From Gammaproteobacteria bacterium (GTDB taxonomy: Bacteria > Pseudomonadota > Gammaproteobacteria > UBA6429 > Thiohalophilaceae), in NCBI GenBank assembly GCA_023135195.1, contig JAGLTQ010000129.1, positions 1 through 26,350 of the forward strand: DNA of 26,350 nucleotides, written 5' to 3'. Each line of letters opens with the position of its first letter. Position 1 is the stretch's first letter. This document shows positions 3,658 to 10,572 of the stretch, piece after piece. Below the pieces are notes generated by a model. That model was not told the DNA's origin, made no database searches, and worked only from the letters and a program-made list of their open reading frames with translations. The position numbers and the translations under genes are program-made.

Positions 3658-5202
3658 ATGAAATTGAGTGCATGGCAAGTTTTAGGTATCGCGCAAACGA
3701 CTAATAAAAAGCTTATTAAACGCGCATATGCGAAATTATTAAAACTTCATAAGCCTGAACAGGATCCTGAAGGCTATCAACGTCTTCGTAACGCCTATGA
3801 TAAAGCTATCGTTTATTGTAAAAGGGAGAATGTAAATTCTATTGAAGATTTTTACAATGATGTTATTGCTTTAGACCTTCCGGTTCAGCTCTCTCATCGT
3901 TCGGAGTTTCAATACAGTGAACCAGACATAGAAAACATGGGATCTGTAGTGGATGATTCCCCTGATGCTCGTATTTTCAATGATATTAATAATGCTGTTC
4001 AGAATGTTTTTTATATTGAGTCCCCAATAGAATCACTTAAATCATTTAAGACTTTGTTGAAGTCAGATTTATTACTCAATATTAAAAACAGGAAGTTGTT
4101 TTCACTATTATCAATAGAAAAAGGAATTAATTGGGATGGTGACTTTGAATATCCCTATGTGCTTTTAAATGATATGGCCACTGAGTTGGCCTGGTTTGAT
4201 ATAAATGCCAAGTATGAATCAGTCAGCGATGAAGATATTCATTATTTACAGTTACGAATAAAAGCAGGTTTAGAGTACCAGGCTTTGGTAAAGCTATCTA
4301 AACAGCGCGCATTTTTCAGCAAAGATAGTTCAGACATTCGAGCGGCTCGTTTAATTTTAGGTGAGTATCATCCTGGGTATTTTAATTTTCAGGCTTTTAT
4401 TTATTTTAATCACAGTTATTATGCGACTAAAAATATCATTGATAAATTTACTCAGCAGTATTCTTTAGAGCTTTGCCCACAAATAAATACGCCATCATTT
4501 CGATGGTGGCAAAAACGATTAAACAGACATGCCTACTCAATTATTGATGTCATTATTGCTACTTCTATTGTAGTAGTTTTAATAATGTTGAATGACATGT
4601 CTATTATTAGTATTTACAGTCTTTCCCTTGACCATTCTATAGTTACTGGTTTTAGCATCTTATTAATGGTTATTCTATCTATTGCTGTTTGGTGGATGAT
4701 TAACGTCTTGCTAAAAGGGTTTCGTTTTACAGCATCAAAAGTAAAAGAATATTATAAAGTTTTAAAAGATTATATTAGTGAATATTGGAACAGCATTAAA
4801 CATCGACCTTTTGTTTATTATGGTGTAACCAGCATTTATATATTTGTTTTTTTATTAGCTGGCTATTTAAAGGATTCAAATTATGATACTGGTTTATTAT
4901 TTTTAGGCAGTATATTGCTTTTTATAATGCTTGAAGCAAAAATTATATTGTTATGCGTCGCTTATCTTCCTTACGTTCTTGTGAAATCGGAAATAGAATT
5001 TATTGAATTACCATTAACATTAAATTACATATTTGTTTTTGTTGCATTATTAAGTATTGTTAGTTTTGAAAAGTTACAGGAAATTGAGCTTGCTGAATGG
5101 GCAACAAGGAGTACGCTTGGCGTGATTCTTAGCATGAGCATTGTTACCAGCTTAGTCAGTTTTGTCCTGCTTAAAAGTTTAAATTATATTATCTTGTTTT
5201 AA
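3658..5202 (+). CDS. djlC: Membrane-anchored J-domain co-chaperone, DjlC-like, and probable partner of HscC.
   Basis: The N-terminal ~65 aa form a J domain ([29 protein letters not shown] contains the HPD-type tripeptide as HKP..DPE). The C-terminal ~200 aa are strongly hydrophobic with several predicted TM helices. The gene sits immediately upstream of an HscC-type Hsp70, mirroring the E. coli ybeV(djlC)-hscC arrangement. Confidence 0.7.
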
Positions 5203-5216
5203 AAAGTGAATATTAT

Positions 5217-6917
5217 ATGTCTATGATAGGTATTGATTTAGGTACAACAAATAGCCTGGTAACGTATTGGGATGGGAAACAGGCAAGCTTGATTCCCAAT
5301 GGGCTTAATAAAGTTATGACGCCTTCTATTGTTGGTATAGATGACAGTGGTGCGATTATTGTTGGTGAGGTTGCCAGGCAACGATTACAAACTCATTCCG
5401 ATAAAACCCTTGCAAATTTTAAACGTTACATGGGAAGCAATAAAACGTTTTCTCTGGGTAAAAATAAATTTCGTCCTGAAGAGTTATCCGCATTGGTATT
5501 GAAAAGTCTCAAGGCTGATGCAGAGGCTTTTTTAAATGAAGAGGTAACGGATGCAGTCATCAGTGTGCCTGCTTATTTTAGTGATGCGCAACGTAAGGCG
5601 ACTCAGGCCGCAGGACAGTTAGCAGGACTTAATGTTAAACGCTTAATTAATGAACCGACCGCCGCGGCTATAGCCTATGGAATGCATGAGAAAAAGGATG
5701 ATATTACTTTTTTAGTCTTCGATATTGGTGGCGGCACATTTGATGTTTCAATATTAGAACTCTTTGATGGTGTCATGCAGGTCAATGCTTCATCGGGTGA
5801 TAACCGCTTAGGTGGAGAAGATTTTGTTGATGTGCTGATAAGAGCATTTGCAGAACATCATAATATGAAGCTTGATAAATTAAAGGGACAGCAACTGGCA
5901 AACTTACGTTTATCCGCAGAGAACTGTAAGCAAGCATTGACCTCTGAAATGCATTCAAGTATGAGCATACGAGTAAAAAAACAGAACTATGATATGTCTG
6001 TGAGTCGGGAACAGTTCAATGATTTTAGTGCTGATCTATTACAACGCTTAAGACAGCCTCTTGAGCGTGCACTGAATGATGCAGATCTGCATGGCGATGA
6101 ATTGGATAGCATCATATTAGTGGGTGGGGCATCACGCATGCCGATCATTCGCTCGCTTGCATCAAAGATGCTTGGGAAAATTCCTTCAGCACATATCAAC
6201 CCTGATGAGATTGTTGCTTTAGGTACAGCCATTCAGGTTGGTCTAATACAAAATGATGAGACATTAAAAGAGATTGTACTAACGGATGTATCGCCTTATA
6301 CCTTAGGTATAGATATACATAATGAGAATGATCAGGGTGAAAGTGGTTTATTGTTTCATCCTATTATCGAACGTAATTCTCCTGTACCAATTAGTCGAAG
6401 TGATTTGTTATATAACGCAAGTGATAACCAATCCAAAATTGAAATGGGTATTTATCAAGGTGAAGCACTCTATGTAAGGGAGAATATAAAACTGGGAACA
6501 CTTAAATTAAAAATACCCAGAGGACGAGCAGGATCTGAAAGCATAGATGTTCGTTTCACCTACGATATTAATGGCCTGTTGGAAGTAGAAGTGATCGTAA
6601 CTTCAACGGGTAAAAAAGAACGTGTCGTGATAGAAGGCAACCCCGGTCTTTTAACACAAAAAGAAATTGAACAGCGCTTAAAATCTTTACAGGGATTGAA
6701 AATTCACCCCCGCGAAAAACTTGAAAACTCAGTATTAATGGCTCGGGGAGAAAGATTATATGAAAATGCACTGGGAGAAAAACGTGCGTATATAGCAGAG
6801 TTATTACAACTATTTGAGAAAACATTGAACAAACAAGATTTGGCTGAAATTAAATCTCTGGTTAATGAAATTACTGAAATCTTTGATCAGTTAGAGCAAG
6901 ATTCGCCGCTGCACTAA
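5217..6917 (+). CDS. hscC: Hsp70-family chaperone, HscC subfamily.
   Basis: 566 aa. It carries the Hsp70 N-terminal ATPase signature [10 protein letters not shown], plus [26 protein letters not shown] and [10 protein letters not shown] motifs. The length and shortened C-terminal lid are HscC-like (E. coli HscC is 556 aa). It follows a J-domain membrane protein by 15 nt. Confidence 0.85.
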
Positions 6918-6931
6918 ATACAGTAATGGCT

Positions 6932-9133
6932 TTACATCAAATCCATCGGGTCTATATCAATAGACCAACGAACTTTTTTTGCAGTCTTGTCGATTTCAAT
7001 TTGTGGAATGCTTGAGGCAAAGAGTGTTTGTAGTTGTTTACGGTTGTTAGCCTGAACGAGTAACTGTGCACGATAACGTCCGGCACGACGTTCCATTAAA
7101 GCGGGGAACGGACCAATTAATAAAACATCATTTTGTTTATTTTGTTCTAACAACAAACGCGCTTGTTCTAAAAATACCATCGGACTTTGTTGATCAACCG
7201 CTTCTGCACGAAGTAATGCTAGATGAGTAAAGGGCGGCAACTCTGTTTGCTGGCGTTCTTCGATTAAGGCTTTTGCAAAACCGGGATAGTCATGTTTAAG
7301 CAACGGTTTAAATAAGGGATGATCTGCATGATGAGTTTGAATAAGTACTTCACCCTCTTTTTCTTCACGTCCAGCACGTCCGGCGACTTGTAAAATCAAT
7401 TGTCCCATACGTTCTGAAGCACGAAAGTCTGAACTGTATAAACCATGATCCGCATTTAACATGCCGACCAATGTTACGTTAGGAAAGTGATGCCCTTTGG
7501 CCAACATTTGTGTGCCAATTAAAATTTGTCGCTTACCATTATTGATTTCATTTAGCAGTTTTTCCATTGAACCTTTACGGCGCGTGCTATCGCGATCAAT
7601 ACGGATCACCTGATACTGAGGAAAGAGTTCATTGAGTGCATGCTCAATGCGTTCGGTACCAAAACCCATTTGTAATAGATCATCGCACTTACATTTTGGA
7701 CATGCAGAAGGTTTATATTGTTCGGTACCACAGTGGTGACAACGTAGTTGTGAATTACTTTGATGCAAAGTCATGTGGGCATCGCAACGTGGACATAGAG
7801 CATGCCAGCCACACTCATGACACATGAGGACAGGAGCATAACCACGACGATTTAAAAATAATAAAACCTGTGAATCATTCTCAAGATGTTCTTTCATTTT
7901 ATGCAGCAGTTGTGCTGAAACACCGTGTTCCATTTTTTGACTGCGTACATCGAGCAAAGAGATGGTGGGTGGCTTTGCATTACCGGCACGTTCAGGTAAT
8001 AACAAGGTTTCATAACGACCTTGCAAAGCATTATATAAGGTTTCTAATGAAGGTGTGGCTGAGCCTAATATAATAGGGATATTTAAATCGCGTGCGCGTT
8101 TAACCGCAAGGTCACGTGCTGAATAGCGAAAGCCATCTTGCTGTTTAAAGGAGAGATCATGCTCTTCATCAATGATAATGATACCGGGCCGTAATAGGGG
8201 GCTAAATACAGCAGAACGTGTTCCTATAATAACGTCGGCTGAACCGGCCTGGGTGTGCAACCAGGCCTGTAAACGTTCTTCATCATTTAAACCGGAATGC
8301 ATGATGGCAATGCGGCCATCAAGACGTTGTAAAAACCGATCCATCAATTGTGGGGTGAGCCCAATTTCAGGAACCAAAACGAGCGCTTGTTTTCCCTGCT
8401 TGAGAACATCTGCAATGACCTGAAGGTAAACTTCAGTTTTACCACTGCCGGTTACCCCTTCAAGTACATAGGCATGAAAGCCGTCATCTTTTTGTTCAAT
8501 AACACGATTAATAGCGTGTCGCTGATCATGATTAAGTTTGTGGGCAGAAGTGATGGTTTGTGCAATTGGTAAGGCGTTTTCTTCAAATGATTCTACTAAG
8601 CCTTTTTCTTGCAGCCGTTTCATTACCGGACGCCAGCCAACATGGTGTTCACTGAGTTGAGAATCTAATAAGCCTGAAGTGGATTGCTTGAGATCACCCA
8701 TTAGTGCAACTTGCTTGGCAGCTCTTTTTAAGCTCAGCAGGTCGAGCTGCTGGCCCTCAGGCGTGAGCTGCCAGCGCCTGATACCTTTTATATGAGTAGA
8801 AGCACCTTGACGTAGCTTTACCGGTAAGGCATTTTGCATGACCTCTCCGATAGGGTAGTGATAATACATGCTGCACCAGCGAAGTAACTGTAAAAGCTCA
8901 GTGTCAAAAACGGGTTTTTCATCCAGAATTTCAATGGCGTGCTTTAATTTTTGCACAGGCACATTGGTTTCATGCACAACGTCCAATAAAATACCGATTA
9001 GCGTTTGGCGTCCAAAGGGCACCTTTATGCGCACCCCTGCTGGAGGGTGTTTTGCCTGAAAATTTGCCGGCACAAGGTAGTCAAAATAACGTCGAAGCGG
9101 GGTTGGAATGGCGATGCGTAAATAGTTGTTCAT
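6932..9133 (-). CDS. priA: Primosomal protein N' (PriA replication-restart helicase).
   Basis: 733 aa. Walker A GVTGSGKT and a DEEH box (IIIDEEHD) are present. The Cys-rich zinc-finger insert CHECGWHALCPRCDAHMTLHQSNSQLRCHHCGTEQYKPSACPKC is characteristic of PriA. Confidence 0.9.
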   Translation of the reverse strand: MNNYLRIAIPTPLRRYFDYLVPANFQAKHPPAGVRIKVPFGRQTLIGILLDVVHETNVPVQKLKHAIEILDEKPVFDTELLQLLRWCSMYYHYPIGEVMQNALPVKLRQGASTHIKGIRRWQLTPEGQQLDLLSLKRAAKQVALMGDLKQSTSGLLDSQLSEHHVGWRPVMKRLQEKGLVESFEENALPIAQTITSAHKLNHDQRHAINRVIEQKDDGFHAYVLEGVTGSGKTEVYLQVIADVLKQGKQALVLVPEIGLTPQLMDRFLQRLDGRIAIMHSGLNDEERLQAWLHTQAGSADVIIGTRSAVFSPLLRPGIIIIDEEHDLSFKQQDGFRYSARDLAVKRARDLNIPIILGSATPSLETLYNALQGRYETLLLPERAGNAKPPTISLLDVRSQKMEHGVSAQLLHKMKEHLENDSQVLLFLNRRGYAPVLMCHECGWHALCPRCDAHMTLHQSNSQLRCHHCGTEQYKPSACPKCKCDDLLQMGFGTERIEHALNELFPQYQVIRIDRDSTRRKGSMEKLLNEINNGKRQILIGTQMLAKGHHFPNVTLVGMLNADHGLYSSDFRASERMGQLILQVAGRAGREEKEGEVLIQTHHADHPLFKPLLKHDYPGFAKALIEERQQTELPPFTHLALLRAEAVDQQSPMVFLEQARLLLEQNKQNDVLLIGPFPALMERRAGRYRAQLLVQANNRKQLQTLFASSIPQIEIDKTAKKVRWSIDIDPMDLM

Positions 9134-9270: not shown

Positions 9271-9305
9271 TTATCCACAAAAACTGTGGATAAGTCTGTG
9301 GATTA
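9271..9305. promoter_or_regulatory. Cluster of three DnaA boxes, ~140 bp upstream of the priA start codon. Box 1 is TTATCCACA (forward, 9271-9279), box 2 TGTGGATAA (reverse, 9285-9293) and box 3 TGTGGATTA (reverse, 9297-9305).
   Basis: Direct reading gives two perfect matches to the DnaA box consensus TTATCCACA in opposite orientation, plus a third one-mismatch box. The spacers are 5 and 3 bp. Confidence 0.6.
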
Positions 9306-9672
9306 AAAGAGAAAATCTGCTATTTATACTGCTATTACAGCGATAATGTTAAATTGGTTACAATTTGTACTGAAAACTTATTCCTTAATTTTCAATAGGT
9401 TATATTGTTTTTATAGTATTTTTCACATTTGATGACATTTTTATGAAGCTAAGTCGTTGTTATTGTTACTGCTGTGCATAAAAGTAAATTTTCTTTAGAT
9501 TTTTGCTTGATCTGCTGAAAATTTTCATGTAATTCGAAATAAAAACAGCCCCTTTTTAACTAAATGTTGTGAAACTTAAGCAAAAAAGTACATTTGCAGT
9601 TTATCATTAATCATCAAGAATAAACTGCATGAAAATCGTTAAGTAAAATCAATTATTTTTAGGGAGAAAGGT

Positions 9673-10572
9673 GTGCCGGATTGGTCAAAAATTGAACAAG
9701 ATATATGTTCATCAATAGACAAGCCTTTTCAGCTTAAAAAGCATTCTGTGGTGCTTGGTGGTGATATCAATCAGGCCTTCCAGCTAAGTGGAAAAATTGA
9801 TAATGAAAATATGGATATCAGTTTTTTTATAAAATTTAATCAAAAAGACCTTCTTGATATGTTTACCGCGGAAGCAGCAGGACTTCAGGAAATTGAGCGG
9901 GCACAAGCTATTCATGTACCGAAGGTAATTTGTACTGGCACAGATGAAAATCAGAGCTATTTGGTTCTGGAAAATTTGCTGTTTACGGGAGCTTCTTCTA
10001 ACTCTGCAGAAAAGCTGGGGCATAAGTTAGCTGTCATGCATAAACAGACTGCTCAGCAGTATGGTTGGTCGAAAAATAATACCATTGGTTCTACTAAACA
10101 AATTAATACGCAAGCTGAAAGCTGGATTGATTTTTGGAGAGAGTTTCGTCTTGGTTACCAGGTTAACCTTGCGGATAAAAAAGGTGCTGCACAATCATTA
10201 ATTATTAAAACTAATAAATTATTAAATAGTCTGGATGCCTTTTTTGTAAGCTACTCTCCTGTACCTTCGTTACTTCATGGTGATTTATGGTCAGGTAATT
10301 ATGCGTATCTAAAAAATGGAGAGCCGGTTATTTTTGATCCCGCTGTTTATTATGGTGATCGAGAGGCTGATATTGCGATGACGGAATTGTTTGGAGGGTT
10401 TCCTGGTGAATTTTATACCGCATATAATGCAACCTGGCCATTAGACAAAGGTTATCAACAACGTAAAACGTTATATAACCTTTACCATATTTTAAATCAC
10501 TATAATTTGTTTGGTGGTGGCTATGCCATGCAGGCAGAAAATATGACAGATCAATTATTAGCTATGTTATAA
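9673..10572 (+). CDS. Fructosamine/ketosamine-3-kinase family protein (YniA-like).
   Basis: 299 aa. GTG start with GGGAGA five nt upstream. It has the kinase-like motifs HGDLWSGN and DPAVYYGDREADIAM of the fructosamine kinase (PF03881) family. Confidence 0.75.
   Translation: MPDWSKIEQDICSSIDKPFQLKKHSVVLGGDINQAFQLSGKIDNENMDISFFIKFNQKDLLDMFTAEAAGLQEIERAQAIHVPKVICTGTDENQSYLVLENLLFTGASSNSAEKLGHKLAVMHKQTAQQYGWSKNNTIGSTKQINTQAESWIDFWREFRLGYQVNLADKKGAAQSLIIKTNKLLNSLDAFFVSYSPVPSLLHGDLWSGNYAYLKNGEPVIFDPAVYYGDREADIAMTELFGGFPGEFYTAYNATWPLDKGYQQRKTLYNLYHILNHYNLFGGGYAMQAENMTDQLLAML

Follow-up and report, generated by a model that had tools for sequence, protein, structure and literature searches.

DARS loci hold a central place in models of initiation timing in E. 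coli. DnaA boxes I–III are essential for ADP dissociation at these loci (PMC11724364), and the 5 bp that separate box I from box II form part of a model in which a head-to-head DnaA dimer is the proposed ADP-releasing unit (PMC6868365). DARS1 needs no accessory protein (PMC11724364); DARS2 requires IHF at IBS1-2 and Fis at FBS2-3, and a 5-bp shift of these IHF and Fis sites is more damaging than a 10-bp shift (PMC4245941). Fis itself is described as conserved only in E. coli-related gammaproteobacteria (PMC4245941). Reported carriers of DARS are Shigella, Pectobacterium, Yersinia, Photorhabdus, Rahnella, Vibrio and Shewanella (PMC4245941, PMC8682772, PMC4585315, PMC6090056), with homologues reported at uvrB or mutH positions (PMC4585315, PMC6090056). 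Within the literature examined, in which the original Fujimitsu 2009 study is represented through later papers, DARS-like sequences are reported only in E. coli-related species, and a literature search for DARS together with priA or with Burkholderia returned nothing relevant.

Two spacers of E. coli MG1655, bioD-uvrB (L091) and rppH-mutH (L092), were fetched and scanned for DnaA boxes, placing the DARS1 core at L091 808-842, which reads TTATCCACT-ATTCC-TGTGGATAA-CCA-TGTGTATTA, and the DARS2 core at L092 1136-1170, which reads TTATTCACC-TTTTC-TGTGGATAG-AGT-TGTGAAGAA. In the window, i.e., the whole 26,350-bp stretch of DNA that was analysed, positions 9271-9305 consist of TTATCCACA, the 5 bp AAAAC, TGTGGATAA, the 3 bp GTC and TGTGGATTA, which correspond to the following features:

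9271..9279, plus strand: DnaA box I, TTATCCACA, perfect consensus, head-to-head with box II
9285..9293, minus strand: DnaA box II, TGTGGATAA in plus-strand letters, perfect consensus, 5 bp from box I
9297..9305, minus strand: DnaA box III, TGTGGATTA, one mismatch, co-oriented with box II and 3 bp apart from it

The cluster exhibits three 9-bp boxes with box I opposed to boxes II and III and with spacers of 5 and 3 bp, as does a DARS core, and it occupies a non-coding chromosomal location, the 539-bp spacer between priA and a fructosamine-kinase gene. The first-pass annotation of this DNA had described forward-reverse-reverse boxes with gaps of 5 and 3 bp at 9271-9305, which the letters confirm exactly, and had likened this architecture to that of the DARS core; the comparison proved equally exact, the 9-5-9-3-9 layout and the orientations being equal to those of both DARS1 and DARS2 of MG1655. 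Boxes II and III on their own represent a generic high-affinity arrangement, the so-called ‘double DnaA box’, which is also seen at DnaA-regulated promoters (PMC11317965). Boxes I and II are the sole perfect DnaA 9-mers in the window, and a scan with the gapped triple-box pattern, allowing up to 3 mismatches, returned a single match in the window, with none of 100 dinucleotide-preserving shuffles of the window yielding any match.

The cluster is located between two divergently oriented genes:

6932..9133, minus strand: priA, encoding the replication-restart helicase (NCBIfam NF004067, 995 bits; TIGR00595)
9673..10572, plus strand: fructosamine-kinase family gene, the divergent neighbour (Pfam PF03881, E=9e-107)

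The priA gene reads away from box I, its start codon being 138 bp from the start of box I (annotated at the first pass as ~140 bp), and the 539-bp spacer has a GC content of 0.33-0.34, in agreement with the earlier description of a 539-bp AT-rich intergenic region; the source is a GC-poor (about 38%), uncultured gammaproteobacterium. The single GATC that had been counted is indeed the only one in the spacer and falls within a block at 9506-9533 (GCTTGATC ... TTTTCATGTAAT) that is kept in close relatives. This block may be the promoter of the fructosamine-kinase gene (TTGATC, 15 bp, TGTAAT), about 140 bp upstream of the gene start. Genes for dnaA, ihf, fis and hda are absent from the 26,350-bp window. 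Rfam searches of the whole window at gathering thresholds gave zero matches and a tRNA/tmRNA search detected none, and thus the presence of a known RNA in the long spacer is unsupported. Promoter and terminator scans showed no excess over chance and no terminator, and scanning of the priA strand from its ATG to box I revealed no sigma-70-like promoter.

Elsewhere in the window (3658-6917), a gene for a 566-aa Hsp70-family paralogue comes immediately after a 514-aa ORF without a Pfam or NCBIfam match; the paralogue scores well under the cut-offs for DnaK and HscA. Both ORFs also occur on L081, a sequence with an identical priA that was considered as a divergent upstream variant and rejected, as it represents the same genome with two 100-nt scaffold gaps.

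Loci containing priA were fetched at graded levels of PriA identity, and fourteen priA-upstream regions were aligned. Relatives of PriA with identities between 94% and 57% come exclusively from metagenomes, and the same PriA is also present on a marine-type metagenome scaffold. In every fetched metagenomic relative (PriA 59-100% identical) the box cluster is found 119-172 bp upstream of priA, and among species-representative genomes it is also present in MAGs of Thiohalomonadaceae and Thioalkalispiraceae (PriA 50-57%) and of other gammaproteobacteria. Absence of the boxes upstream of priA in relatives had been named in the first-pass annotation as the outcome that would count against its reading; the opposite was observed, the cluster being conserved. 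Box I is invariant in 13 of the 14 aligned regions and faces priA in every PriA-anchored relative. Spacer lengths within the cluster are constant among the relatives; that between boxes I and II is 5 bp in all of them, although its sequence differs (AAAAC, AAAGC, GAAGC, GCTTC or GTTTC in the window orientation). Across the 626 kb of PriA-anchored loci, perfect box pairs are exclusively head-to-head with 5 bp between them; perfect pairs at any other spacing from 0 to 15 bp, or in other orientations, were not encountered in these 626 kb. A PriA scan of genome contigs returned, among the matches listed, mostly Pseudomonas and enterics at 47-57% identity, and the core cluster is absent from 65 canonical divergent rpmE-priA loci (Pseudomonas, Enterobacterales and others).

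The pairing of priA with the fructosamine-kinase gene is retained in relatives. The trio of priA, module and fructosamine-kinase gene is intact in relatives with at least 68% PriA identity; in the relative at 59%, a PNPOx gene has been inserted and the module remains with priA. Beyond this trio, the genes vary in nearly every relative (ferritins, MCP, SBP_bac_11, argS, Band_7, GGDEF/EAL).

Alignment of the fourteen priA-upstream regions, combined with a fixed-register scan on the box III side, revealed that the three boxes are part of a larger arrangement of about 210 bp, which contains the following features in addition to the core:

9271..9481, no strand assigned: the whole proposed DARS2-type module, comprising core, Fis-like site, IHF-like site and distal box
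9356..9370, no strand assigned: Fis-consensus-like palindromic site, GGTTACAATTTGTAC, 0 mismatches to GNNYANNNNNTRNNC, with the binding protein a predicted one
9390..9402, plus strand: predicted IHF-consensus-like site, TTTCAATAGGTTA, 1 mismatch to WATCAANNNNTTR
9473..9481, minus strand: distal DnaA box, TGTGCATAA, fitting TTATNCACA, co-oriented with boxes II and III, the IHF-like site starting 83 bp before it

The Fis-like site is located at the same position in ten of thirteen relatives (+85..+99), and the IHF consensus, at no more than 1 mismatch, is present at the same offset in all thirteen, being perfect in three of them (L088, L001 and L002). A DARS2-type IHF site flanking the core is in this manner present at the sequence level. 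The distal box lies at +202..+204 from box I in twelve of the thirteen relatives, and approximately one helical turn farther in the thirteenth. Between the sites the sequence is free to vary in the PriA relatives, whereas the distances are constant. The earlier count of only three boxes holds for the core triple but not for the locus, as the fourth box, TGTGCATAA at 9473-9481, had been overlooked, together with the conserved Fis-like and IHF-like blocks that separate it from box III. The Fis-like block may bind a protein other than Fis. Of note, the plus strand has a promoter-like match (TTTTCA, 17 bp, TATAGT) at 9389-9417, in overlap with the IHF-like site; only in close relatives is the -10 element of this match kept, whereas the IHF consensus persists in distant relatives.

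The distribution of the module outside the priA context was assessed by scanning metagenomes with the pattern TTATCCACA-N5-TGTGGATAA-N3-TGTG, which matched at least 120 stretches, with 80 loci listed. Since this set was chosen for perfect boxes I and II, it is uninformative regarding the conservation of these boxes, on which the PriA-anchored set alone informs; the accessory features are outside the search pattern. Redundancy among the loci is minimal, 72 of them giving 71 clusters; they span a GC content of 36-73% and include Burkholderiales-named DNA, and the composite module is present in at least 70 non-redundant loci. An IHF consensus with no more than 1 mismatch is found at +118..+123 in 39 of 74 loci, against about 0.26 expected from the flanks; a Fis consensus with 0 mismatches is present at +85..+87 in 28 of 74 loci, against an expectation from the flanks of 0.18; and a distal box in the orientation of boxes II and III is located at +191..+217 in 45 of 72 loci, with 0.9 expected from the flanks. 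Family-wide conserved bases are T85, G86, A90-93, T96 and C100, G86, A90, T96 and C100 being exactly those conserved for the Fis-like site; no conserved sequence is shared across the family to the left of box I. The distance from the start of the IHF site to the distal box falls into classes of 72-75, 82-85 and 92-95 bp among the metagenome loci, with the window, at 83 bp, in the second of these, and the steps of ~10 bp look like helical phasing. A further locus, which was reached by XseA homology rather than by the pattern, carries the core, together with a distal box at +191 and, at +86, a perfect match to the Fis consensus.

The occurrence of the module does not depend on particular neighbouring genes. 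Among the listed loci, the neighbour is rpmE (with hemW and rph) in 24, priA in nine and exbB/xseA in twelve, the remaining 35 being diverse. One XseA from the exbB/xseA context is 100% identical to a protein labelled ‘Burkholderiales bacterium’ at NCBI, and for the rpmE group the closest relatives with a name are uncultured Gammaproteobacteria. At L097 the module is situated between the 3' ends of convergent genes (encoding an AFG1/ZapE ATPase and a deacetylase), and at other diverse loci it lies just past the 3' ends of recG, proS or metC.

The adjoining genes are often involved in repair or replication (priA, xseA, recG, sbcB; dnaX within 3 kb), which recalls uvrB at DARS1 and mutH at DARS2 of E. 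coli. The idea that the rpmE- and priA-linked copies are the two halves of an ancestral priA-rpmE spacer was considered and found to fit poorly, as both genes face box I; it is also countered by the canonical priA-rpmE pairs, which are without the core.

Base preferences are also apparent between boxes I and II. Position +13 (9284 of the window) is a C in 67 of the 80 listed loci, in the window, and in both DARS1 and DARS2, and A is preferred at +10 and +11 across the loci, indicating that the spacer sequence is partly constrained. Box II may extend by one base into this spacer.

The layout of the DARS core was also found in 34 phage contigs (IMG/VR, L215-L248), which form two recurrent sequence families. 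In the first, three perfect boxes (TTATCCACAGTTTCTGTGGATAAGTATGTGGATAA) are positioned beside repressor-like genes, and in the second, TTATCCACAACCTTTGTGGATAAAGCTGTGAACAT is located at the 3' end of a gene for a DNA helicase, the surrounding module including an exonuclease gene as well; examples are L233 6370-6399 and L242 7799-7828. The IHF, Fis and distal-box features and the chromosomal neighbours are all absent from the 34 phage contigs, and such bare cores demonstrate that the accessory features of the chromosomal loci are not a by-product of the search pattern. The phage copies may represent origins of the phages or ‘bare’ DnaA elements that phages carry.

The segment 9271-9481 is best read as a DARS2-type chromosomal DnaA-regulatory module, in which DnaA and IHF would cooperate to recycle ADP-DnaA; judged from the sequence, this reading is given a probability of roughly 0.58. 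It follows from a DARS2-like list of parts at positions comparable to those of DARS2, which points to a nucleoprotein complex of that type. In the mechanism that we infer, DnaA molecules, including the ADP-bound form, would occupy the perfect boxes I and II in a head-to-head manner, facing each other over the 5-bp spacer, while box III would be bound by a third DnaA, head-to-tail beside box II. IHF would sharply bend the DNA at 9390-9402, probably assisted by a Fis-type protein at 9356-9370, and the predicted loop would bring the distal box (9473-9481) with its bound DnaA back to the core. The strained DnaA oligomer would then let go of ADP at the head-to-head pair, allowing free DnaA to rebind ATP and replenishing the active initiator; the direction of the effect would thus be towards ADP release and not towards ATP hydrolysis or simple titration. 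If priA transcription is affected at all, this would be a secondary consequence.

With respect to that direction, a datA-like function is a real rival, since the box-IHF-box layout resembles that of datA. According to this explanation, which we consider unlikely albeit deserving of serious attention, the DnaA-IHF complex would drive the hydrolysis of ATP by DnaA-ATP (DDAH), or would titrate DnaA, and thereby act as a brake on initiation. When the two are aligned by their IHF sites in one orientation, 56 bp separate boxes 7-2 of datA from the IBS and 84 bp separate the IBS from box 3, with box 4 another 3 bp on; in the module, about 60-70 bp separate the distal box from the IHF site and 85 bp separate the IHF site from box III, which is followed after 3 bp by box II and after a further 5 bp by box I. 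Both have DnaA boxes flanking a single IHF site, with arms of similar length and the same relative orientations, and perfect boxes would be good titrators of DnaA as well. However, the pair that defines DARS, head-to-head with 5 bp between and with a third box at 3 bp, is present in the module and absent from datA, in which the head-to-head pair consists of boxes 3 and 4 with a 3-bp spacer, box 4 being merely stimulatory (PMC11724364). Furthermore, the essential tandem boxes 7-2 of datA lie on that side of the IHF site on which the module has only one box.

That the boxes form a DnaA-controlled promoter element, repressing or activating priA (and rpmE or exbB elsewhere) and thereby tying restart capacity to the level of the initiator, is distinctly improbable. 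E. coli DnaA does control replication and repair genes through double boxes, for example polA, nrdA and, at DARS1, uvrB (PMC11317965), several neighbours of the module are themselves repair or replication genes (priA, xseA, recG, sbcB), and in the priA, rpmE and exbB/xseA contexts, as in DARS2, the gene reads away from box I with its start 70-230 bp off. However, the module recurs at unrelated genes, between convergent genes and at 3' ends without a promoter (L097, L093, L109, L158), its setting beside varied and convergent genes indicating that it is more than a promoter element; in addition, family-wide conservation stops at box I on the left, the priA strand from box I to the ATG is devoid of a sigma-70-like promoter, and the canonical divergent priA-rpmE pairs of Pseudomonas and enterics do without the boxes. 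Between the two functions that the first-pass annotation had put forward, these observations (unrelated or convergent neighbours and the lack of a sigma-70-like promoter between box I and priA) favour an autonomous recharging or titrating locus and disfavour control specific to the priA promoter, although some transcriptional effect on priA may exist alongside. Co-oriented boxes with a 3-bp gap, the ‘double DnaA box’, are the preferred in vivo binding unit of DnaA (PMC11317965), and those at the polA, purH and nrdA promoters are the same unit as boxes II and III of the window (PMC11317965). Unlike the module, the polA, purH and nrdA double boxes are bound to specific promoters. To our knowledge, neither a third inverted box at 5 bp nor phased IHF, Fis and distal sites have been described for them.

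A more speculative proposal, which appears slightly more doubtful again, is that a single locus controls the DnaA nucleotide cycle, a DARS core on one arm of an IHF bend being combined with a datA-like box-IHF-box layout such that the occupancy by Fis and IHF and the ADP/ATP state of the distal DnaA would switch it between recharging and inactivation, and that such a locus was the ancestor of both DARS2 and datA. A chromosomal or secondary origin of the oriC type is hardly credible despite the AT-rich 539-bp spacer, the four DnaA boxes and the IHF-like site, since the cumulative GC skew climbs steadily through the site with no switch in the window (which also bears out the earlier statement that this is not a full oriC), the sign of the skew is equal on both sides in nine of eleven long-flank loci (the two exceptions being near zero), none of dnaA, dnaN, mnmG and rpmH is nearby, the module occurs in at least four genomic contexts across taxa, and four boxes compare with the five or more expected of an oriC.

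If the DARS2-type module is indeed a working DARS, then DNA-based recharging of DnaA would be a widespread trait of beta- and gammaproteobacteria, extending to Burkholderiales as well as to marine or sediment lineages that are uncultured. The module would also provide a sharper consensus than that of E. coli, with perfect boxes I and II, a fixed 85-bp IHF arm and a helically phased distal box, and this consensus would predict in a testable manner how the IHF bend activates the core, as well as supplying a sequence signature by which such loci could be found in any genome. It is furthermore relevant to a possible common origin of DARS and datA.

Among the described systems, datA of E. coli has the function, ATP hydrolysis, that is opposite to the one proposed for the module. 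DARS1 shares the core layout with the window, has a perfect box II and a nearly perfect box I, and is likewise upstream of a DNA-repair gene; it differs in that scanning found no IHF or Fis consensus within 200 bp of it, whereas in the window a distal box is present along with IHF-like and Fis-like sites that are conserved. The differences from DARS2 are several. Boxes I and II are degenerate in E. coli DARS2 but perfect in the window, and DARS2 has two adjacent IHF sites where the module has one. The essential Fis sites of E. coli lie beyond IHF, whereas the order in the module is core, Fis-like site, IHF-like site and distal box; FBS2-3 overlap low-affinity DnaA boxes beside box V, whereas beside the distal box of the window no Fis consensus with 0 mismatches occurs. 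This distal box is also opposite in orientation to box V. DARS2 is located in the rppH/ygdT-mutH region, whereas the module is found away from the mutH position, beside priA in this uncultured, GC-poor gammaproteobacterium and beside rpmE or exbB/xseA elsewhere. In MG1655 coordinates, the distance from oriC amounts to about 40% of a replichore for DARS2 and about 20% for datA.

There are also several likenesses to DARS2. The core orientations and the 5-bp and 3-bp spacers are identical in E. coli and the window; an IHF site is present on the box III side, with IBS2 at +109 and that of the module at about +120, approximately one helical turn apart; and both loci contain Fis-consensus sites (PMC4245941; PMC8682772). 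Each has an isolated extra box, box V at +211 and that of the module at about +203, and the 102 bp from IBS2 to box V in DARS2 extend the 72-75, 82-85 and 92-95 bp series of the module. Each locus further has a gene whose reading direction leads away from box I, with rppH starting 158 bp and priA 138 bp from that box. The core is a known one and the accessory sites are of known kinds in a rearranged order, and it is the genomic positions and the lineages that are new.
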